The notes under the pieces: generated by a model | The model's input: the letters and a program-made list of their open reading frames with translations, nothing else | Told to the model about the DNA's origin: nothing | Databases searched by the model: none | Translations under genes and position numbers: made by a program | Part shown: positions 9,576-27,590 of the stretch, piece by piece | Layout of the letters: every line of letters begins with the position of its first letter | Numbering within the stretch: the first letter of the stretch is position 1 | Origin: Methylorubrum extorquens | GTDB taxonomy: Bacteria; Pseudomonadota; Alphaproteobacteria; Rhizobiales; Beijerinckiaceae | DNA: 32,000 bases | Assembly: GCA_900234795.1 (NCBI GenBank) | Contig: LT962688.1 | Span: forward strand, 4,680,001-4,712,000 | Direction of reading: 5' to 3'

Positions 9576-12500
9576 CTAGGTGTGGTGATACATGTCGTGC
9601 ACCGGATGCGTCTGATCCGTGACCCCGATCAGGCCGACCGTGTGATGGGTCGTTGCCTCGTCCGGCCCGTGTGGAAGGGCCGATGGCGCCGGATCCTGAG
9701 GGGCGTCCGCGTGGAACACGAGATTGCCGTCCGCGTCGATCACCGCGGGCGGCGGGCTTGGCCGGCCCGGCTTCGCTTGACCGGACGCCCCCTGGGACGC
9801 CGCGGAGCCGGATTGGCCGTTTGGCAAAGGCCCGCCCGCCAGATCGGCTTCGACCTGTACAGGCGGCTGGGTCGGCTCGTTGGCCTTGACCGGAGGGGCC
9901 GCCTGTCCGGGCGCCTCCCGGTCGGTGCGGCCGCTGACCGAAAGGACGTCATCGACCTGTCCTCGATCGGGATGGGCCGGTGCGATCGCCTCCTGCGCAG
10001 CCGGTGCAGACGGCGACGTCAGGTCAGGACCACCGGACGGGCCGGACAGGTCATTCTCGTCCACGCCGTGAACTGTCGCCTGCGGGTCCGCCACTGGGAT
10101 CGCGCGAACGACGACGGGTCCCGCGCTGTCATGCGGTCCGTCAGGATCGGCTTGGGCGTGCTCACCCTTCGGCGACGCAATCTGAGCGTCCGACGCCGGT
10201 GAAGCGCCGTGTCCGAGGGGGTTTTCCGCCTCCGCCCGATCGCTTCCCCGATCCTGCAAGACTGGATCGTGGGCAGCCGACGCGGGAACGGCAGGCTCCG
10301 CATCGGCACTTTGCCCGTGCGGCGCCGACTCTTCCTGCGCAGGCCATGCCTGGGGCCCGGCGCCGCCGGCATGGACGTTCGATGGCGACGTCACGGCGAC
10401 GTCGCTTGGCGTGGATCCGTGCTCCTTCGTGCCGAACACGTCCCCGTTCGTCTGCTCCGAGGCTGCCGCGTTCGCGGCCTGATCGGAGCCATGCTCGATC
10501 GAATGACCCCGTGCGGGTTCGGAGGGCGACGATGTCAGATCCTGACCAGGTCCATCCGCCGCCGCGGGCGCCCGATCGGCCTTGGCTGCAGGCCCGGGAG
10601 CCGCTCCGTCGGTCGGATCGTGCGCGCCGCCCGGCAGCTCGGTCGCGCTGAGCGTTTTCGATCCGTGGAGAGCGGGATCGGGGTCGAGCAACGCATGAGC
10701 CTTCGGGGTCGGTGCCGCGTCGGATCGCGTTTCGCCGGGAGTTTCTGGCTTACCGTGACTTGAAGCCGTGTCGCTCGCGCCGGGACCATGCGCTTCGGGC
10801 GCTTGCTGGTCGTTCCGCTCGGCCGGAACCGAGTTTTGACTCTGGCCGCGATCGGCCTGCTGCTCAGTCGCGGGAAGAACGGCTTCGGCCTGCGCGGCCG
10901 ATCCCCGCTCGTTGGCATCGCTTGGGGCCCGGCCGTGGCCGGCGGTCGGCGCGTCTGAACCCGGCTCATGGTGCGCGACAACCTCGGCCTTCGAGTTGCT
11001 GCCATGACCCTGGCCGTTGTTGCTGCCCGTCGGCTCGATCTGCGGATCGTTTCCAGACGCCGCCTCGGTCGGCCGCTGCGAACCTTGATCGTTGGCATTC
11101 TCCTGGCCGCTGGCGCGACCAACCTGTTGACCCGCGGGAGGATCGCCGATCACGGCCTCGGCCCGTGTGCTTCCCGGGCCAGAGACGCCGGCATGGCCTT
11201 CACTCGGGCCGGTCTGCACGATCGGCGGGTTCTGTGCCACCGCAGTCTCGGCCTGCGGGCCCCGGTCCTGAGCAACGGCGCTCGCGTTGCCGTTACCACG
11301 GCCGGTCTGCTCGACCGGTGGGCCGTTCCTCGTCTCGGCCTGAGCCGGCACGGTTTCTTCCCGAGCGAAAACGCTGGATTGGTCATGGCCGCGGCCGGTC
11401 TGCGCGCTTGGCGGATTACTTCCCGTCGCAGGCTCAGCGTGCGGGCCCCGCTCCTGAGCAGCGACACCGGCATTGCCACGGCTGCTCGACTCGACCGGTG
11501 GGCTATTCGCCGCTTCAGCCTGAGCCGGCGAGGCGTGTTCCCGAGCGACAACACTGGATTGGTCATGGCCGCGGCCGGGCTGCGCGGTCTGCGGATTACT
11601 TCCCGTCGCAGGCTCAGCCTGCGGGCCCCGGTCCTGAGCAACGGCGCTCGTGTTGCCGTTGTCACGGCCGGTCTGCTCGACCTGTGGGCTATTCGCAGCT
11701 TCGGCCTGAGCCGGCACGGCGTCTTGCCCAGCGACAACGCTGGATTGGTCCTGGCCGCGGCCGGTCTGCGCGCTCGGCGGATTACTTCCCGTCGCAGGCT
11801 CAGCCTGCGGGCCCCGCTCCTGAGCAACGGCACCGGCATTGCCACGGCTGCTCGACTCGACCGGTGGGCTATTCGCAGCTTCAGCCTGAGCCGGCGCGGC
11901 GCTTTCCCGAGCGCCGCCGCTGGCGTGGCCATTGCCACCGCCGGCCGGCACGGTCTGCGGGTTGTTCCCGCTCGCCCCCTCAGGCGATGAAGCGCGGTCC
12001 GGACCGACGGTGTTCACGTGGCCGTTCGTGGGGCTCGTTGGCTCGGCCCGCATTTCATGAGAGGCCGCAGCCGGCGCGCCCTGATCCTGGCCTTGGGCGC
12101 TGGCTTGGCCCTGGCCGGGTCCAACCTGCTCGGCCTTCGGGCTGTGTCCGACGGCCGCCATCGCCGGCGAGCCGCGATCCTGACCGGTGCTTTCGATGAA
12201 ACTTTGACCGGGGCGGGCCTGCCCGGCCTGCGAAGTGTTCCCGGTCGCGGTTTCAACCTGCGCGCTCTGGGTCGCCGCAACGCTGGTGGGGTGCCTGTCA
12301 CTGTCGGCGCCACGCTCGGCCTGCGGACTATTCCCGGTCGCTGTATCCGTCTGAACGCCTCGGCCTCGACCGATGCCCTCGGGCTGGCTGTGACCGGGGG
12401 CGGCCTGTTCTCCTGTCGGATGGGTCTCGGCTCCAGCCTTGGCCGGGGATTCTCGATCCCGGCCCACGCCCTCGACGTGACCGTTGGCAAGCCCCGCCGG

Positions 12501-13802
12501 ATCGACCTTCGCACTGTCCTCGAGCGCAGCCTTTGCGGGTCGGCCGCCGCCCCGATCGTCGGCATCCCGCGAGGCTTCGGGGGCCGGTATCCGGTTCGTC
12601 GCAGTCTGGGTTACGGCATTGCCCCAGGCCGGTCGGGCAGGTCCGCTTCCGGCGTCAGCCGAGTCAGACGATGGGGCAGGTGCAGGACGGGCGCGGGAGC
12701 CGGGTTCGGCGATCGAGGCCAATGCCGAACCGGCATGCTGATCAGTTGAGTTTGACCCCGGCTCGTCCGATGTGGGCGCCGCACTCTCGCTGCGACCCGA
12801 CGTCGACGCCTGTTGGCCGCTGGATTTGGCGGCGGACGCCTCGGCCGATGTGCTGGCTAGCGCGACGTCGCTGCCAAATCTCGGCGCCAGCGGCTGGTTC
12901 TGCGAGGCTGGTGACTTCGGCGCTTCAGCCGGGGATTCGGTCCGCGCCACAGGAGCCGGATCGACCCGGCTCGCCGCTGTAATCGTGTCGGAAGCCGGGT
13001 GAGGACGAGCATCGGGATTCGCGCCGCTGCCCTGCGCCGTCAGAACGGCCGGCTGAGCCGACACGCTCCCGCGGCCGGAGCCGAACGCGGTGCCCGACGC
13101 CGGCGCCGCTTCACCCTGCGCGGTTAGGATCGAGGCGTTGCTCGCCCCGTCCGCGAAGTCGAGATTCAGCTCCGCGCTCACGGCGCGGTGATCGATCGCC
13201 ATGGCCTCGGCTGCGAAGATCATCGCGGAGAGGATGATGGCCTCGAGCTGCTTGCGATCGGTGTCCCGATCACCGGACCCGCCATTGGCCTTCGGCTGCG
13301 GATGGCCCGGCGCGGGCCCGCCACCCTGGGAGGCGGGCGGCGGAGATACGCCTTCGCCGTCCGCCACGAGCGAACCGGCATGGGCATCCTCTGAGGACAG
13401 GCTCAAGGCTGCCGCCGCCACCAGGGCCGCGAGCAGCGCGGCCGGATGAACCACGAGCGTCGTCCCCGTCGCTGTCGCCGGGATCGGAAGCAGGTGCGGA
13501 TGCAGTTGGGCGATCTGGTCGATCAGGGTCCGGAAATCCGTGCCGCGCACGGGCCGATCCAGAGCGTCCGAGGCGATGAGATAGCTGCCGTCGATTTTGG
13601 CGAAATGAATGATCGCGTCGCCGTCCGGTTGGCAGAAGACGAACCACGGCTCACCCTCGTCGCTGAGGCCGTGCTCGCTCGCGATGCTGAACCCGGCACG
13701 GAGGAGAGCCGCCTCGACGCGATAGAACTCGGCCAGCTCCTGCTGCGACCAGTTGCCTTGCCGCGCCGATGCCGGACGGAAGAAGGGAATGACCGTGCTC
13801 AT
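9576..13802 (-). CDS. giant low-complexity repeat protein (about 1408 aa) with a ~110-aa ordered N-terminal domain; unknown function, last gene of the T1SS cluster
   Basis: Single ORF 9576..13853. The best start is ATG 13802 (GGTGAG 6 nt upstream); alternatives are ATG 13808 and GTG 13853. N-terminus STVIPFFRPASARQGNWSQQELAEFYRVEAALLRAGF..., then a hydrophobic stretch LVVHPAALLAALVAAAALSL. The remaining >1200 aa are rich in A/P/G/S/Q/E with internal repeats. The tail is His-rich (HHTVGLIGVTDQTHPVHDMYHHT). Confidence 0.8.
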   Translation of the reverse strand: MSTVIPFFRPASARQGNWSQQELAEFYRVEAALLRAGFSIASEHGLSDEGEPWFVFCQPDGDAIIHFAKIDGSYLIASDALDRPVRGTDFRTLIDQIAQLHPHLLPIPATATGTTLVVHPAALLAALVAAAALSLSSEDAHAGSLVADGEGVSPPPASQGGGPAPGHPQPKANGGSGDRDTDRKQLEAIILSAMIFAAEAMAIDHRAVSAELNLDFADGASNASILTAQGEAAPASGTAFGSGRGSVSAQPAVLTAQGSGANPDARPHPASDTITAASRVDPAPVARTESPAEAPKSPASQNQPLAPRFGSDVALASTSAEASAAKSSGQQASTSGRSESAAPTSDEPGSNSTDQHAGSALASIAEPGSRARPAPAPSSDSADAGSGPARPAWGNAVTQTATNRIPAPEASRDADDRGGGRPAKAALEDSAKVDPAGLANGHVEGVGRDRESPAKAGAETHPTGEQAAPGHSQPEGIGRGRGVQTDTATGNSPQAERGADSDRHPTSVAATQSAQVETATGNTSQAGQARPGQSFIESTGQDRGSPAMAAVGHSPKAEQVGPGQGQASAQGQDQGAPAAASHEMRAEPTSPTNGHVNTVGPDRASSPEGASGNNPQTVPAGGGNGHASGGARESAAPAQAEAANSPPVESSSRGNAGAVAQERGPQAEPATGSNPPSAQTGRGQDQSSVVAGQDAVPAQAEAANSPQVEQTGRDNGNTSAVAQDRGPQAEPATGSNPQTAQPGRGHDQSSVVAREHASPAQAEAANSPPVESSSRGNAGVAAQERGPHAEPATGSNPPSAQTGRGHDQSSVFAREETVPAQAETRNGPPVEQTGRGNGNASAVAQDRGPQAETAVAQNPPIVQTGPSEGHAGVSGPGSTRAEAVIGDPPAGQQVGRASGQENANDQGSQRPTEAASGNDPQIEPTGSNNGQGHGSNSKAEVVAHHEPGSDAPTAGHGRAPSDANERGSAAQAEAVLPATEQQADRGQSQNSVPAERNDQQAPEAHGPGASDTASSHGKPETPGETRSDAAPTPKAHALLDPDPALHGSKTLSATELPGGAHDPTDGAAPGPAAKADRAPAAADGPGQDLTSSPSEPARGHSIEHGSDQAANAAASEQTNGDVFGTKEHGSTPSDVAVTSPSNVHAGGAGPQAWPAQEESAPHGQSADAEPAVPASAAHDPVLQDRGSDRAEAENPLGHGASPASDAQIASPKGEHAQADPDGPHDSAGPVVVRAIPVADPQATVHGVDENDLSGPSGGPDLTSPSAPAAQEAIAPAHPDRGQVDDVLSVSGRTDREAPGQAAPPVKANEPTQPPVQVEADLAGGPLPNGQSGSAASQGASGQAKPGRPSPPPAVIDADGNLVFHADAPQDPAPSALPHGPDEATTHHTVGLIGVTDQTHPVHDMYHHT
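11162..11891 (-). repeat. in-frame tandem repeat, four units of alternating 180 and 186 bp, inside the giant ORF
   Basis: On the minus strand, units start at 11891, 11711, 11525 and 11345, each beginning AQAE(A/T).... Peptide units alternate between type A (AQAEAANSPPVESSSRGNAG..) and type B (AQAEAANSPQVEQTGRDNGNTSAV..). The plus-strand landmark GC(C/G)TGCGGGCCCCG recurs at 11251, 11437, 11617 and 11803. Confidence 0.85.
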
Positions 13803-13880
13803 CGTCATCTCACCGTGTCGGCTCGTGGCGACCCTTGGCGGAGAGCGCCGCACCCCATGGCGGAGCGACCGGGTGCAGCG

Positions 13881-15263
13881 CTAGCGTTCATGGAAGGCGC
13901 GTCCCATCGCGTCGAAGAAGGGCGCGAACAGATATTCCAGGGCCGTGCGCTCCCCGGCCGAGACCACCACCTCGGCTGGCAAGCCCGCGAGAAGGCGATG
14001 TCGGACCTCGGCGGGAAGCTGGTGTTCGTCGATCTCCACGGTGCCGGCGAAATAGGCCTGCTTCGACCCCTCGTCGACCAGACGGTCCCGCGACACCACC
14101 GTGAGCGTTCCGAAGACTGCGGGCGTACGGCGAGCCTGAAAGGTCGGAAACTTGATCTCCGCCCGCATGCCGGCATGGACGGCCTCAAGGTCGTTGGGCG
14201 AGAATTGCACGTTGACCACGAGCCTGTCCGCCGTCGGGACGATCTCCATCAGCGGCTCGCCCGAGCGGACGACCTGCCCGATCGCGAAAACCTTGAGCCC
14301 CTGGATGACGCCGTCGTGGGAGGCGCGGATCTCGTGCCGCCGGAACACGTCCTGCGCGACGACGAGCTTTTCCCGGAGTTCGCCGATCCTCTGCCGCGTC
14401 TCGAGAAGTTGGCCGGTGACCGCCTCCTGAAGCTTCTGCTTCAACTGGGTGACCTGCAGCCCGGCCTCGCTGATGGCGTTCTCGGCTTTTGCTCTTTCCG
14501 CGACGGAGCGCCCGATCACACCCTCCAGTCGCGTGCGCTCCCGCTCCATCACGAGGAGGCGCGACAGCGGGATCAGATTTCGCTCGTGCAGGCTGCGCAG
14601 GCCCTCCAGTTCCTGTCGGATGAAGCCGACCTGCTGCTCGACCGAGGACTTCTCGACCGCAAGGCCGGAGATCTCCGTCCGCAGCTGGGTGACTTTGGCC
14701 TCGATGAGGGCGAGTTGGCCCTTCAGCGTCGTCCTCCGTTCGGCCAACTGACCCGCCTGGTCGCCGATCATGCGTGCGAGGACGGGCTCGTTGCGCCGTG
14801 CGGCGATGTCGGCGGGCAGTTGCAGGTCGTCGGACTGCGCCTGCTCCGCCCGCAGCCGCGCCTCCAGGACAAGAGCGGCGTCGAGCTGGTTTCGGAACAG
14901 GTCCGCACTCGCCTGGGACTGTAGGGGATCGATGCGCAGAAGGACGTCGCCGGAGCGAACCGTCTGCCCGTCCTTCACCAGCACCGCCTGGACCATGCCG
15001 CCCTCGAAGTGTTGGACGACCTTGCGGCTGGTTTCCGCGACGATGACGCCGGTGCTGATGACGGCGCGATCCAGGCGGACGGTGGCCGCCCAGGCACCGG
15101 CGACGCCGAAGGCCGCGGCGATGAGCGCATAGCCGCCGATCGCGTAACGCTGCCACGCGATCGACGGGACGGCGCTGTCCTCGGCACCCGTTCCGCCTCG
15201 GCCCAGCGACGACGAGGAAGCGGCGGAAGACGTGATCGGGATCGGGGCAGGAGGCATTGTCAT
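13881..15263 (-). CDS. type I secretion system membrane-fusion protein (HlyD/PrtE/AprE family)
   Basis: 460 aa. TM segment YALIAAAFGVAGAWAA; VVQHFEGGMVQAVLVKDGQTVRSGDVLLRID hairpin; long coiled-coil; C-terminal beta-barrel ending ...ERTALEYLFAPFFDAMGRAF. The start is 3 nt after the ABC stop. Confidence 0.9.
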   Translation of the reverse strand: MTMPPAPIPITSSAASSSSLGRGGTGAEDSAVPSIAWQRYAIGGYALIAAAFGVAGAWAATVRLDRAVISTGVIVAETSRKVVQHFEGGMVQAVLVKDGQTVRSGDVLLRIDPLQSQASADLFRNQLDAALVLEARLRAEQAQSDDLQLPADIAARRNEPVLARMIGDQAGQLAERRTTLKGQLALIEAKVTQLRTEISGLAVEKSSVEQQVGFIRQELEGLRSLHERNLIPLSRLLVMERERTRLEGVIGRSVAERAKAENAISEAGLQVTQLKQKLQEAVTGQLLETRQRIGELREKLVVAQDVFRRHEIRASHDGVIQGLKVFAIGQVVRSGEPLMEIVPTADRLVVNVQFSPNDLEAVHAGMRAEIKFPTFQARRTPAVFGTLTVVSRDRLVDEGSKQAYFAGTVEIDEHQLPAEVRHRLLAGLPAEVVVSAGERTALEYLFAPFFDAMGRAFHER

Positions 15264-15266
15264 GGC

Positions 15267-17030
15267 TCAGCCCGCGCTACGTTGGATTTCGGACAGCCTC
15301 TCGTTCTCGGGCATCGCGCGACCGCCGGTCGCGACCAGCGCCGGAACCGGGCGCGGCCCGGAAACCTGGGTGAGGATCTGATCCGCCGGGCCCGAAGCGC
15401 GGAGCGTTCCGCCCTCCAGCATCAGGATCTGATCGGCGCCCGCCAGCAGGCTCACCTTGTGCGTGACGATCACAACCGTCGTCCCCCGCTCTCGAAGGTC
15501 CGCCACCGCCCGCATCAGCGCGGCCTCGCCGGCTTGGTCGAGGCTGGCATTCGGCTCGTCGAGGACGACCAAGCTCGGGTCCCCGTACATCGCCCGCGCC
15601 AGGGCGATGCGCTGACGCTGGCCGCCGGAGAGGCCGTGCCCGCCCGATCCGATCCGGGTGTTGTAGCCGTCCGGCAGAGCCTGGATCAGGTCGTGGCAGC
15701 CCGCGCGTTGCGCCACCGAGACGATGGCGGCGTCGTCCTGGGTGTCGAAGCGCGCGATGTTCTGCGCCACCGTGCCGTCGAACAATTCAACGTCCTGCGG
15801 CAGGTATCCGAGATGCCGGCCGAGCGCCTGCGGGTCCCAGTGCCGGAGGTCGGCTCCGTCGATGCGCACCGCGCCGGAGGTGATGGGCCAGACGCCGGTG
15901 ATCGCGCGGACCAGGGTCGATTTCCCGGCCGCACTCGGACCGATGATGCCGACGACGCTGCCGGGCTCCAGCCGCACGCTGACATCGTGGAGAATGGCCG
16001 TCGGCGAGCCCGGCGCCGCCACGACCAAATTCTCGGTCTCGATCAGACCGCGCGGACGCGGCAGCATCACGCGCTGCGGTTCGAGGCCGATGCGCCCCAC
16101 GATGTCCGCCAGCCGGGCATAGCTGCGCCGGGCCGCCGTGAAGCTCTTCCAATGCCCGACGACCGCCTCGATGGGCGCGAGCGTCCGGCCCATGATGATG
16201 GAAGCCGCGATCATCGAGCCGGCAGAGATCTCGCCATGGATGGCGAGGTAGGCGCCGACACCGAGGACCATCGTCTGCAGGAACATGCGCGTGAACTTCG
16301 TCGCCGCGGTGATGAGGCCGGCGCGATCGCTCGCCCGGGCCTGCAGCCGAATCGCCTCGTCGTGACGCCGACGCCACCGGGACCGCAAGGCGCCGAGCAT
16401 GCCCATGGCGCGCAGAACCTCGCCCCCTCGCATGGTCGCGCGGGCCTGCTCGCCCGCTTCTCGGGCCGCTTGGCTCGCCACGTCGAGGGGCCGCCGGGTC
16501 GTGAGATCGGTCAGGAGCGTGAGCCCCAGGAGCGTGCCGCCCCCGAGCAACGCCATCCAGCCGAACCACGGATGGAGGATGAAGCAGGCCATCAGGAACA
16601 GCGAGGCCCAGGGCAGGTCGCAGAGCGCCAGGATCGCGCCGCCCGTGAGGAACTCACGCAGGACATCGACATCGCGAAGGATCGTTTCGTGCCCGGCGCG
16701 CGGCTTGAGCAATGCGGCCCTGTGAACGATCTCGAAGACTGGTCCGGCAACCTTTCGATCGAAGATCATCCCGCCCCGCACCAACAGGCGCGAACGAAGC
16801 ATTTCGAGGACGGCATAGACGGCGAGCGCGAAGGCCGCGATGCCCGTGATGCCGAGGAGCGTCGCCTCGTTCCGGCTCGAGAGGACGCGATCGTAGACCT
16901 GCAGCATATACAGGGGACCGGCGAACAGAAGCAGGTTCGTGAAGAAGGCGAAGACGAACACCGTCATCAGAACGGGGCGGATCGCCCGCAGCCCATCCTT
17001 CAAGACGGACTCGGCCACACGATCGCTCAT
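15267..17030 (-). CDS. type I secretion system ABC transporter (permease + ATPase), PrtD/AprD/HasD type without an N-terminal C39 peptidase domain
   Basis: 587 aa. The N-terminal half has 6 TM segments and starts directly with FFTNLLLFAGPLYMLQVYDRVL. Walker A GPSAAGKST, signature LSGGQRQR, Walker B LVVLDEP. RBS GGGAGG lies before ATG 17030. Confidence 0.9.
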   Translation of the reverse strand: MSDRVAESVLKDGLRAIRPVLMTVFVFAFFTNLLLFAGPLYMLQVYDRVLSSRNEATLLGITGIAAFALAVYAVLEMLRSRLLVRGGMIFDRKVAGPVFEIVHRAALLKPRAGHETILRDVDVLREFLTGGAILALCDLPWASLFLMACFILHPWFGWMALLGGGTLLGLTLLTDLTTRRPLDVASQAAREAGEQARATMRGGEVLRAMGMLGALRSRWRRRHDEAIRLQARASDRAGLITAATKFTRMFLQTMVLGVGAYLAIHGEISAGSMIAASIIMGRTLAPIEAVVGHWKSFTAARRSYARLADIVGRIGLEPQRVMLPRPRGLIETENLVVAAPGSPTAILHDVSVRLEPGSVVGIIGPSAAGKSTLVRAITGVWPITSGAVRIDGADLRHWDPQALGRHLGYLPQDVELFDGTVAQNIARFDTQDDAAIVSVAQRAGCHDLIQALPDGYNTRIGSGGHGLSGGQRQRIALARAMYGDPSLVVLDEPNASLDQAGEAALMRAVADLRERGTTVVIVTHKVSLLAGADQILMLEGGTLRASGPADQILTQVSGPRPVPALVATGGRAMPENERLSEIQRSAG

Positions 17031-17434
17031 GGCACCTCCCGGCGCGCCGGTTCACGTGGCCCGGATCGCGCGGCCAAGCAGTCCGCCTGCGAATGCCGGC
17101 CACAGAGCGCCATCCCTCGGAACAGGAAGGGGAGCTTCGAGGCCGTCGGCCGGGATTCATTCCCGGAAAAATGTGACTTGTGCCGCCGCATCGCGTCCGC
17201 TTCCCCGGCTCGCGTCATCGCGTGCCGGCTTATGAATCTTAGCGCAGGCTTATTGTATTCCAAGGAGCGCCGCCGAGACCGTCGAAAATCGGACGCAATG
17301 CCAACTGGACATCGGCTGTCTGAGCGCCATATGGAAATCACTGTACCATTCGGCGCTCTCGCAATTGAGCGCTGGCGGGAGCCGCACATTTGTATGTCCA
17401 TCAGCAACGTCTCGGCTCTGAGGAGGTGCAGGAA

Positions 17435-17686
17435 TTGCGCCGCGAAGGTGGCCGCTTCCTGAAGGACCTTCGCGAGAAGCAGGGTCTCTCACAGAGACAG
17501 TTGGCTGCCCTGGTCGGTGCCGAGTACTACACCTTCATCTCACAGCTTGAGACGGGCCGCGGCCGAGTGCCCCCGGACCGGTACCGGCTCTGGGCCGATG
17601 CCCTGGGAGTGGATGCGAAAGACTTTGTGAAGAGCCTGATGCGCTTCTACGATCCGCTGACGTTCGAGATCCTCTTCGGCGACTGA
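17435..17686 (+). CDS. XRE-family helix-turn-helix transcriptional regulator
   Basis: HTH segment LREKQGLSQRQLAALVGAEYYTFISQLETGRGRVP. AGGAGG at 17421-17426 lies 8 nt before in-frame TTG 17435 (the ORF track begins at TTG 17390). Divergent from the T1SS operon. Confidence 0.75.
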   Translation: MRREGGRFLKDLREKQGLSQRQLAALVGAEYYTFISQLETGRGRVPPDRYRLWADALGVDAKDFVKSLMRFYDPLTFEILFGD

Positions 17687-17747
17687 CCCGTCGTCGATAC
17701 AGGCTCGACTCTTGCCGTAGAACGCGCGGGAAGCTGGCTGTCTGCGC

Positions 17748-17963
17748 CTATTCCGCCGCGAGGCTGAGCGTCTCCGCTTCGACAAGGACGGCGCCACAGG
17801 CTGTCATCAGGTCGCGCAGCATCGCCAGAGCGGTTTGCACTTCCGCCGGCGTCGACAAGCCCTCGCGGAAATGCGTGCCACCACCGGCCAACGTCACTGC
17901 GATGTCGAACCGTCCGTCAGGGCGTTCGAGGATCCGATACGACGCGCGGCGAGGCATGGGCAC
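17748..17963 (-). CDS. small hypothetical protein (69-71 aa), paralogue of 19046..19279
   Basis: About 40% identity over ~54 aa with the product of 19046..19279 (YRILERPDGRFDIAV...GL.T.AE...LRDLMTACGAVL versus YRVVDCPDGRFAVVV...GL.TLAE...LRAILAHCGAAL). GC3 about 76%. No good SD sequence. Confidence 0.5.
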   Translation of the reverse strand: MPMPRRASYRILERPDGRFDIAVTLAGGGTHFREGLSTPAEVQTALAMLRDLMTACGAVLVEAETLSLAAE

Positions 17964-18171
17964 GAGGGAGAGCGATGGCTGGAAGCGTGAAGACCAGCCC
18001 TGTCATGCGTCGCCCGTTCGTGCAGTTCAAGCTATGGACTTCGCTGTATCCAGCCGCTCCAAACGAGGCGTGGACAGCCGCAATGTGAGACAGAGCCCGA
18101 ATCCGCACTGATCGCGGACGACGTCATCCGGCGCTCGAAGCAGATTTGGGCCAATCGGAGAAAGATGAAGT

Positions 18172-18885
18172 TCAGGCCGGCACCTTGGTGGAAGGCGTGC
18201 TCAGCCGCTCCATCAAGTAGGAGCGAGCACGGCTTACCCGGCTCTTCACCGTACCGGTCTGGCAGCCCATGACCTCCGCGGCCGCTTCGTAAGTCAGGCC
18301 CTGCGCACCGACGAGAAGCAGCGCTTCGCGTTGGGGGGCCGGTAGCCGCGCGATGTAGGACAGGACGACCTGAAGGTCCGAGCCATGCTCCTGTGCCGCC
18401 AGCGCAACCAGTTGGCCCGCCATGACACCGTCCACGTCCTCCACCTCACGCCTGTGCTTGCGTCGCTCGGTGTAAAAGTGATTGCGGAGGATGGTGAACA
18501 GCCACGCTTTCAGATTCGTGCCTGGCACGAACCGATCCTGATTGGCCCACGCTTTCAGCACGGCCTCCTGCACGAGATCGTCGGCCCGTGCAGCACTTCC
18601 AGCGAGCGACTGCGCGAACACCTGCAGCGCCGGAAGTGCTGCCGTGAGCCCCGCGCGAAAGGCTGCGTCGCGCTCACTCGCCAGGGGCGCGAGAGCACTC
18701 TCCAGAACCCGCGTGAGATCAAGCAAATGCTGCGGCGCACCTGAAACGACGATTTCGAGATAAGTCGCCTGCAACTGAGCTCCGATGTGCTTCTGCACCG
18801 CGAAGGGCAGCCGGGCAGCTCCCGCTTTCCCTTCCGGATCCGAGCAAACCGGACCGAGTCCGCTTGCAATCAGCATGTCGATCAA
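18172..18885 (-). CDS. ECF (group IV) sigma-70 factor with an N-terminal NepR-like anti-sigma motif fused in frame
   Basis: Region 2 is DDLVQEAVLKAWANQDRFVPGTNLKAWLFTILRNHFYTERRKHRRE. The region 4 HTH is LPAPQREALLLVGAQGLTYEAAAEVMGCQTGTVKSRVSRAR. The N-terminal extension contains IGAQLQATYLEIVVSGAPQHLLDLTRVLE. Start is TTG 18885 (AAGGA 7 nt upstream) or ATG 18876. The longer ORF to 19194 is antisense to the paralogue gene and low complexity. Confidence 0.8.
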   Translation of the reverse strand: MIDMLIASGLGPVCSDPEGKAGAARLPFAVQKHIGAQLQATYLEIVVSGAPQHLLDLTRVLESALAPLASERDAAFRAGLTAALPALQVFAQSLAGSAARADDLVQEAVLKAWANQDRFVPGTNLKAWLFTILRNHFYTERRKHRREVEDVDGVMAGQLVALAAQEHGSDLQVVLSYIARLPAPQREALLLVGAQGLTYEAAAEVMGCQTGTVKSRVSRARSYLMERLSTPSTKVPA

Positions 18886-19045
18886 CCCACGTTCCTTCTC
18901 GGAGCGAGCGGCTGAGAGATGCCTGAGCCAGCTCCTCCCGCCGTACAGTGAACATCTAACTCGCGAACCTCGGGGATCGATCCATTCCGTCGGCGCGTTC
19001 GGGGTTGCGCTCGGAGTAGCGTTGAGAGCTTGCACGGTCGAAGTG

Positions 19046-19279
19046 ATGACATGCCCGGTGACGTATCGAGTCGTTGACTGTCCGGATGGTCGGTTCGCGG
19101 TCGTCGTCGTGGCTGCATCGGGTGCTGCGTACTGGCGCAACGGATTGCTCACGCTCGCAGAGGCAGAGGCTTGCGTCGAGGATCTCCGCGCCATCCTGGC
19201 GCACTGCGGCGCGGCGCTCGCGTGCTACGACAATACGCAAGACATTCAAACGGAGCGCTGGCCGCGCTCGCTGAGGTAG
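19046..19279 (+). CDS. small hypothetical protein (77 aa), paralogue of 17748..17963
   Basis: ATG 19046 within ORF 18785..19279. The product MTCPVTYRVVDCPDGRFAVVVVAASGAAYWRNGLLTLAEAEACVEDLRAILAHCGAAL... aligns with the 17748..17963 product. Divergent from the ECF sigma gene. Confidence 0.5.
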   Translation: MTCPVTYRVVDCPDGRFAVVVVAASGAAYWRNGLLTLAEAEACVEDLRAILAHCGAALACYDNTQDIQTERWPRSLR

Positions 19280-19541
19280 GTGGCCTGCGCGGGGGCTGCA
19301 ATTTCCTCGTAAGTGCACTGAGTAGCCTGCTTCAGCCGTGGACAGCCGCACGTCAGCCGGAAGAGCCCATTCTCGGCATGGAGCAGAAGCGGACAGAGGT
19401 GGCATAAGGTGTCCTTGGGCCGAAGTAGGCCTCGTAGCTCTCCGGCGACGGGCCAGGTTTCAGCCGGTTGCTTCCCCTGCCGCGATGGAGAAACTTGGCG
19501 GAGAAATTTGGCCCGGACCGTGCCTCACCTCAGATCACCGC

Positions 19542-20438
19542 ATGTTCGATTGGAACGACCTCACCTTCTTCCTGGAGTTGGCCCGGCATGGCCGGCTGAT
19601 GCCGGCCGCGCGTCGGCTCAAGGTCGATAATACGACGGTCAGCCGTCGCATTGCGGAGTTGGAGCGGGGGCTCGACACGAAACTGTTCCAGCGCTGCTCC
19701 GACGGCTTCCTGCTGACCGAGGCCGGCCACAAGCTCTTCGTGATCGCGGAGGCGATCGAACAGAAGATGCTGTCCGTGCCGGACGAACTCGGCCTCTCGG
19801 ATGGAGCCGAGCCCGCAGGACGCGTGCGTGTTGCCAGCATGGAAGGCATCGCCGCGTTCTACCTGTCGGCCAAGTTCGCCGAGTTCGCCGCCGCCATGCC
19901 CGGCATCGTGATTGAACTCGTCACGGAGCGGCACCTCATCAACCTGACCAAGCGCGAGGCCGACATCTCGGTGTCCTTCGTGCCGCCCCAGGGACCGCGC
20001 CTCAAGGTGCGGCGGGTCGGCGAGTTCCGCTTGGCCCTGTTCGGGGCGGAACGCTACTTCGCCACGCATGGCCGACCGACGACGCGCGCCGACCTTCAGG
20101 ACCACGATTTCGTGGACTACGTCGATGATCTCGTGGCGATCGAGCCGGTGCATTGGCTGCTCGAAGTCCTGAAACCGACGAACGTGGTCTTCCGCTCCAC
20201 CAGCATGGCCGCCCAGCAGACGGCCGTCGCCGCCGGGGCGGGGCTCGGCCTGCTGCCGCTTTTTTCAGCAAAAACCAACCCGGCGCTCATCCCCATCCTG
20301 GCGGACGATGTGGTGGTGCAGCGCGAACTCTATCTCGGTGTTCACGAGGATATCGAGCATGCCGGCCGGATCCGCGTCGTGACACGCTTCCTGGCCGACC
20401 TGTTCTCAAAGGAGGCAGCGTACTTGAACCGGTTTTAG
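19542..20438 (+). CDS. LysR-family transcriptional regulator
   Basis: MFDWNDLTFFLELARHGRLMPAARRLKVDNTTVSRRIAELERGL is a typical LysR N-terminal wHTH, followed by a substrate-binding domain. The start was chosen at ATG 19542 because LysR proteins begin at the HTH; the ORF track extends to 19338. Confidence 0.85.
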   Translation: MFDWNDLTFFLELARHGRLMPAARRLKVDNTTVSRRIAELERGLDTKLFQRCSDGFLLTEAGHKLFVIAEAIEQKMLSVPDELGLSDGAEPAGRVRVASMEGIAAFYLSAKFAEFAAAMPGIVIELVTERHLINLTKREADISVSFVPPQGPRLKVRRVGEFRLALFGAERYFATHGRPTTRADLQDHDFVDYVDDLVAIEPVHWLLEVLKPTNVVFRSTSMAAQQTAVAAGAGLGLLPLFSAKTNPALIPILADDVVVQRELYLGVHEDIEHAGRIRVVTRFLADLFSKEAAYLNRF

Positions 20439-27498: not shown

Positions 27499-27590
27499 CA
27501 TCAACGTTTCATCCGGAGGGGACGTTCGATAATTTTACTAAGTAGTTGAAAAACAGCAGCAATATGAAATAGTCGCATGGGCGGCCGATT

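Follow-up and report, generated by a model that had tools for sequence, protein, structure and literature searches.

The gene analysed here is ecfG3, a general-stress-response sigma factor paralogue (ECF15/EcfG) of Methylobacterium (Methylorubrum) extorquens, encoded on the minus strand of a 32,000-nucleotide window of the genome, and the first ~68 residues of its product derive, as judged from profile comparison and gene order, from the anti-sigma factor gene nepR. The nepR-ecfG fusion occurred in an ancestor of the Methylobacteriaceae and is both ancient and family-wide. The fusion was already known for ecfG3, having been published in 2009 and 2016; the divergent pairing of a small gene with the sigma factor gene is new here. 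Taken as a whole, the explanation we put forward, in which ecfG3 carries a nepR-derived front acquired through an ancestral fusion and in which we infer a contact in cis and a weak autoinhibition, is in our view very probably correct.

Gene identity, reading frame and domain architecture

The initial annotation had described a NepR-like anti-sigma motif fused in frame to an ECF sigma factor, without giving its strand. The interval it named, 18172-18885, coincides with a single ORF of 237 codons on the minus strand, which runs unbroken from TTG 18885 to a stop codon at 18172-18174, and direct reading of the sequence finds no stop between the motif and the sigma domain. All peptides it quoted are present in this ORF, with FAVQKHIGAQLQATYLEIVVSGAPQHLLDLTRVLES at residues 28-63, followed by NLKAWLFTILRNHFYTERRKHRRE and then by VEDVDG. 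The gene comprises the following elements:

18172..18885, minus strand: ecfG3 coding sequence, ECF15/EcfG sigma factor with a NepR-like N-terminal domain, 237 aa from TTG
18893..18897, minus strand: Shine-Dalgarno-like AAGGA, read off the sequence, 7 nt 5' of TTG 18885
18811..18885, minus strand: variable N-terminal tail, aa 1-25, predicted to be disordered (pLDDT <50 for aa 1-23)
18688..18810, minus strand: NepR-like core, aa 26-66, LPFAVQKHIGAQLQATYLEIVVSGAPQHLLDLTRVLESALA, with profile matches and two predicted helices
18661..18687, minus strand: short linker, aa 67-75, ~9 residues, variable in sequence and nearly constant in length
18421..18660, minus strand: sigma region 2, aa 76-155, with ADDLVQ, NLKAWLFTILRN and VEDVDG (Pfam, alignment to 5uxx_A, pLDDT 86-96)
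18199..18381, minus strand: sigma region 4, aa 169-229 (Pfam, alignment to 5uxx_A, pLDDT 91-98)

Two candidate start codons lie 9 nt apart, TTG 18885 (237 aa) and ATG 18876 (234 aa), and one of these is likely to be the ecfG3 start; the published full-length EcfG3 construct begins at TTG (PMC4814048). The databases carry 237-aa and 234-aa annotations of the protein alike. The longest open frame around ecfG3 spans 18172-19194 on the minus strand (340 codons), and we rejected its start, ATG 19194. The 5' third of this version has no homologues and overlaps the conserved divergent small ORF sB, which disfavours it, and homologues and annotations begin at TTG/ATG near 18885. An internal start for the sigma domain was also rejected: as the initial annotation had noted for the stretch between the motif and region 2, the sole in-frame candidate between the NepR motif and the first sigma-2 helix is a CTG (18684), and CTG 18627 and the first GTG, at 18621, fall within that helix and have no Shine-Dalgarno sequence. 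The NepR-like part is not free-standing, lying within the 237-aa ORF with neither a stop codon nor a plausible internal start, and the ecfG3 product is a single polypeptide of ~26 kDa.

Identification of the gene relies on the oligonucleotides of Francez-Charlot et al. (2016, PMC4814048). Of the ten ecfG3 (MexAM1_META1p0932) primers in their Table S5, eight agree exactly with the window where they would be expected to lie, and the gene is therefore ecfG3. The forward primer of the full-length two-hybrid construct, 932 F bac (TTGATCGACATGCTGATTGC), matches 18866-18885 on the minus strand exactly, and its reverse counterpart, 932 R bac, matches 18175-18194 on the plus strand exactly. The primer for the N-truncated 'S' construct, 932 woN F bac, matches 18662-18681 on the minus strand, so that this construct starts from Ala69, in the linker; the promoter and complementation primers match at 18850 (plus strand) and 19088-19106 (minus strand). 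Of the five remaining ecfG paralogues, four had their primers tested against the window, and none matched. EcfG3 shares its entire sequence with ACK82202.1 / B7KQZ7_METC4, an M. extorquens CM4 protein that carries a 237-aa annotation, and the EcfG3 row of Table S3 in PMC4814048 lists CM4 Mchl_1318.

The proposal that the sigma factor is EcfG-like is supported. Three Pfam models match EcfG3 above their cut-offs (Sigma70_r2, 1.7e-14; PhyR_sigma2, 4.5e-10; Sigma70_r4_2, 1.7e-13), and the best PDB match of residues 76-229 is the Bartonella quintana EcfG/RpoE chain 5uxx_A, crystallised with NepR (E 2.6e-44), the sigma domain being 48-52% identical to the EcfG of 5UXX. This alignment begins at residue 8 of the 5uxx_A chain and the NCBIfam sigma models start at residue ~69-73 of the 237-aa protein, from which it follows that the sigma factor proper begins at about residue 69 and that the first ~68 residues constitute an extension. 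On EcfG3, NCBIfam yielded 'RNA polymerase sigma factor' models below cut-off and no match to a NepR model. With sigma-70 regions 2 and 4 only, and closest to characterised EcfG, the protein has the domain composition of ECF15/EcfG, the group to which its orthologue has been assigned (PMC4814048).

Origin of the extension and age of the fusion

The relationship of the extension to NepR, which the initial annotation had read from a sequence pattern, emerges at the level of the family but not of the single sequence. The N-terminal 82 residues of EcfG3 score below the cut-off of the Pfam NepR model PF18557 (E 0.047; 13.8 bits against a cut-off of 25.7), and the EcfG3 core has diverged from the family consensus, reading SGAPQH where the consensus is PPQR. 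The same model matches 20 of 30 homologous extensions at E <= 0.01, with a best value of 1.7e-7. A profile built from the extensions and searched against 177,635 PDB sequences retrieves NepR chains only (2lfw_B, 4.7e-6; 5uxx_B, 1.1e-4; 4qic_B, 1.5e-4; 3t0y_B, 0.91), and an hhalign comparison with 22 canonical NepR proteins drawn from nepR-ecfG operons gives a probability of 97.6% (E 3.7e-12) across 48 columns. In short, profiles detect homology to bona fide NepR, and EcfG3 alone falls below the Pfam threshold. The positions conserved in both extensions and canonical NepR follow the pattern (I/L)-G-x-x-L-(R/K/Q)-x-x-Y ... P-x-(R)-(F/L)-x-x-L-(L/I)-x-x-L-(D/E).

Conservation is distributed unevenly along the protein. 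Among 67 homologues, mean pairwise identity amounts to 56% in the NepR-like core (aa 26-66), 29% in the N-terminal tail and 24% in the linker, and to 72% and 75% in sigma-2 and sigma-4, respectively. In an alignment of 30 extensions, many of the N-terminal tails of the relatives open with MLIA(S/G)GLG.

To compare fused and separate arrangements, the three forward frames 5' of the sigma-2 motif ADDLVQ were searched with an HMM of the extension in a sample of one genome per species, for which the scan returned 80 loci. The arrangements encountered were:

Fused, 27 loci: 24 in Methylobacterium/Methylorubrum, 2 in Microvirga and 1 in a Microvirga-like MAG
Separate nepR, same frame behind a stop, 24 loci (one stop in 23, two in L072): Mesorhizobium, Aminobacter, Nitratireductor, Bartonella, Rhizobium, Afifella and others
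Separate nepR, different frame, 30 loci: various Hyphomicrobiales and other Alphaproteobacteria
No nepR match, 3 loci: 1 Methylobacterium and 2 Lichenihabitans

By this HMM, nepR lies directly 5' of ecfG in 54 of the 57 unfused loci, and the profile matches together with this placement make the extension a nepR homologue in both sequence and position. The distance between the NepR match and the ADDLVQ motif is 105-209 nt in these 54 loci; measured from the end of the match, the 27 fused loci show 84-93 nt in 25 cases and 81 and 111 nt in the remaining two. EcfG3 conforms to the Methylobacteriaceae type of fusion, a continuous ORF with a NepR-like extension of ~55-70 aa. The same-frame loci (L016, L024, L025, L029-L032, L034, L037-L041, L045, L047, L051, L053-L056, L072, L075, L077 and L082) include examples such as QLEKAEPVQKKD followed by a stop codon and then by GMAAVSQGFK, and in many lineages one substitution in the stop codon would suffice to generate a nepR-ecfG fusion. 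Methylobacterium terricola (L043, 2684-3534) carries an unfused pair, with nepR (98 aa) and ecfG (185 aa) overlapping at ATGA; not every Methylobacterium ecfG is of the fused type.

These comparisons also bear on how and when the two genes were joined. The initial annotation had offered, as one option, a nepR-ecfG pair merged by loss of the stop codon. As an account of the origin this is retained, since 24 of the 54 separate nepR genes share the frame of their ecfG, and the fusion plausibly arose by loss of the stop between them; as a local lesion it is not, the event being ancient. A recent merger at this locus, through stop loss, frameshift or sequencing error, or translation of the sigma factor from an internal start, would draw on the canonical arrangement seen elsewhere, with nepR directly 5' of ecfG, the two frequently sharing a frame that one stop interrupts. 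Against it, the fused ORF is unbroken in the 27 genomic loci and in more than 100 proteins returned by a database search, which are 230-240 aa long and 57-99% identical over 97-99% of the query. Named homologues belong nearly all to Methylobacterium/Methylorubrum, with several paralogues per genome; many bear a precomputed NepR domain, and NCBI labels some of them 'NepR family anti-sigma factor'. The comparison with related genomes that the initial annotation had suggested found the fused ORF intact, with no separating stop or frameshift in two strains. Over the 17.6 kb compared, the DNA is ~96.4% identical to M. extorquens CM4 and to GCA_024169945, with no exact copy, and across this 3.6% difference the EcfG3 protein is the same in the window, in CM4 and in the second assembly. 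The 17 nucleotide differences within ecfG3 (9 and 8 against the two strains) are all synonymous and include extension codons 10, 25, 26, 69 and 72. An internal start would have at its disposal, ahead of the sigma-2 helix, a single CTG, the first GTG being inside the helix. HA-tagged EcfG3 has been detected by Western blot, with multiple isoforms reported for EcfG1 only (PMC4814048). The comparative data already refute a recent merger or internal start, which we regard as exceedingly improbable, and they indicate that the fusion is neither a lesion nor an artefact of the ecfG3 locus.

Promoters, neighbouring genes and linked small ORFs

The EcfG promoter consensus is GGAAC-N16,17-(C/G)GTT. No EcfG-type promoter of the form GAAC-N16,17-SGTT was found 5' of ecfG3 or of the small ORFs sA and sB described below. 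In the whole window there are 2 exact matches, neither of them at ecfG3, with 2.3 expected by chance, and sites with one mismatch resemble chance. One exact match, GAACGTCCCCTCCGGATGAAACGTT at 27503-27527 on the minus strand, lies between an OsmC gene and a gene for a GAF/sigma-54 activator and points antisense to the activator gene; ~2.3 such matches are expected per window by chance. Scans for sigma-70 promoters and terminators over 17300-19500 found nothing, and Rfam over 17000-20000 returned sub-threshold chance matches only.

The initial annotation had seen no phyR in the window, and this held for what was covered here: no phyR, nepR or receiver-domain gene occurs among the genes called within +/-10 kb of the sigma factor gene in two related strains, and Pfam detected none in ten long ORFs examined from the outer portions of the window. 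Elsewhere in the window, a type I secretion ABC transporter (15267-17030, minus strand) and a membrane-fusion protein (13881-15263, minus strand) are encoded next to a 1425-aa repeat-containing protein, the group spanning 9576-17030 on the minus strand. The homologues of this protein in CM4 and GCA_024169945 have no Pfam match on record, and its length varies across strains (1425, 1468 and 1527 aa).

Two small ORFs flank ecfG3:

19046..19279, plus strand: sB, 77 aa from ATG 19046 or 73 aa from GTG 19058, divergent from ecfG3; called as a gene in locus L002
17748..17963, minus strand: sA, 69-71 aa, 3' of ecfG3; called as a gene in loci L001 and L002 and conserved downstream in L003 and L005

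The two are paralogous (42% identity over 53 aa, E 7e-12) and share the invariant pattern Y..DGRF...G....R.G....A........LR.....CG..L; Pfam and NCBIfam searches with sA and sB gave no family match. Homologues of sB lie upstream of, and divergent from, the sigma factor gene in L003-L006 and are found beside fused ecfG genes in M. komagatae and M. longum; in M. durans, an sB homologue adjoins an ecfG paralogue in a different genomic context. When metagenomes were scanned with the small protein alone as the query, 34 loci were recovered (L085-L118), in 29 of which the small gene adjoins a fusion-type sigma factor gene. The pair is divergent in all but one of these, usually ~150-500 bp apart, and four of the five loci with no adjacent sigma factor gene end at a contig edge. 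This pairing is not mentioned in PMC4814048.

Possible role of the tethered module and comparison with known systems

Published work on M. extorquens AM1 provides the functional frame for these observations. Francez-Charlot et al. reported a NepR-like extension on all six EcfG paralogues, which in their words 'resembles NepR' and points to an 'ancient fusion event', and whose role is 'currently not known'; a 2009 PNAS paper is credited there with noting the extension. According to the same study (PMC4814048), ecfG3 makes a minor contribution to the expression of stress-response targets, and stress leads to a build-up of EcfG3-HA that depends on PhyR/EcfG, without induction of the ecfG3 promoter. 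In two-hybrid assays NepR and three of its paralogues failed to interact with EcfG3, whether full-length or N-truncated, NepR binding being confined to truncated EcfG1 and truncated EcfG5; in vitro, EcfG1 bound NepR only when N-truncated. A sextuple mutant is complemented by EcfG1 of full length, which also pulls down together with NepR in vivo. The authors could not account for the control that PhyR exerts over those EcfG paralogues to which NepR fails to bind. According to a 2021 review, there is no mechanistic information on the N-terminal extensions of ECF sigma factors, and the later literature consulted adds no mechanism for the NepR-like one.

In the explanation we favour, the NepR core has been retained as a conserved module of two predicted helices, which a short linker of near-constant length connects to sigma region 2, and the most likely contact of this module is one in cis, with the surface of its own sigma domain that NepR would bind. 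Such a contact would shield the EcfG3 sigma domain from free NepR and make it weakly autoinhibited, a state that phospho-PhyR might relieve; for EcfG3 itself, the published control acts on protein abundance. The best support for self-inhibition comes from the published assays: binding of NepR by the truncated forms alone of EcfG1 and EcfG5 is what would be expected if the extension occluded the NepR site in cis; since neither form of EcfG3 bound NepR, this occlusion argument draws on EcfG1 and EcfG5. Because EcfG1 works at full length and is co-purified with NepR in vivo, autoinhibition, if there is any, can only be weak or reversible. Self-inhibition of EcfG3, which the initial annotation had raised, is a plausible hypothesis.

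Structure prediction was carried out with AlphaFold2 on the full-length protein (67 sequences) and on aa 24-229 (116 sequences), together with Foldseek. The models predict two extension helices, at aa 28-48 and 54-68, with moderate confidence (pLDDT 62-78). A compact docked cis state was not seen in either model, both of low pTM (0.42 and 0.48), and their comparison with the compact NepR-bound EcfG chains 5uxx_A and 5uxx_C gave TM-scores of 0.44-0.48 and rmsd values of 12-18 A.

The absence of a docked state in these low-pTM models is among the observations that favour another role, in which the NepR-derived segment would no longer act as an anti-sigma element and would be kept for other purposes, for example as a stability or degron element or to dock another partner, which might be the small divergent protein, a role that would underlie the stress-dependent accumulation of EcfG3. 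Regulation of EcfG3 through protein abundance rather than NepR binding (PMC4814048) is in line with such a role, as are the sub-threshold Pfam score of the EcfG3 core and the tight linkage of the small ORF to fusion-type sigma factor genes. The conserved positions of the extension are nevertheless those of canonical NepR, which suggests that the original binding surface is retained, and the effect of N-truncation on NepR binding by EcfG1 and EcfG5 implies that the extension touches the NepR site. We therefore consider this other role possible, if on the unlikely side. Still less likely, in our estimation, is the joint reading that the EcfG3 module works as a cis anti-sigma factor removed by phospho-PhyR and that sB encodes a dedicated extra regulator. 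Were it true, the paralogues would be self-contained partner-switch sigma factors bypassing free NepR, and the sB product might govern the stress-dependent accumulation of EcfG3.

Returning to the favoured explanation of a weakly autoinhibitory contact in cis, a NepR module tethered in this way would make EcfG3 a natural test case for the N-terminal extensions of ECF sigma factors. The one-stop-codon path to fusion, the conserved core with its near-constant linker and the tightly linked small gene offer experimental handles.

The closest known counterpart is AM1 sigma-EcfG3 (MexAM1_META1p0932), which is the same gene and in which a NepR-like stretch of ~55-68 aa likewise precedes sigma-2 and sigma-4. 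Between the ecfG3 of the window and those of AM1 and CM4 there is no substantive difference, in a strain with ~96.4% DNA identity to CM4, and the AM1 ecfG genes (PMC4814048) resemble the ecfG3 of the window in having neither an EcfG-type promoter 5' nor phyR or nepR nearby. The canonical PhyR-NepR-EcfG system, represented by B. quintana 5UXX and by the S. melonis PhyR-NepR complex 2LFW, has a homologous sigma factor and a homologous NepR in the same relative position. In that system NepR, a two-helix protein, binds the sigma-2/sigma-4 domains of EcfG and keeps the sigma factor inactive until phospho-PhyR, whose sigma-like domain NepR also binds, releases it. Canonical NepR, however, is a separate protein of ~50-90 aa acting in trans, whereas the NepR-like part of EcfG3 is covalently joined, a ~9-residue linker takes the place of the NepR C-terminal tail, and published assays found no interaction with free NepR. 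A fused anti-sigma-like element is likewise present in ECF41, ECF42 and CorE, as a C-terminal extension, and in some ECF36 proteins, as an N-terminal fused anti-sigma factor; gene fusion has been proposed as the origin of fused ECF extensions (PMC8103513, PMC8999054). Unlike the elements of ECF41, ECF42 and CorE, that of EcfG3 is N-terminal and corresponds to a soluble class II (NepR-type) anti-sigma module.
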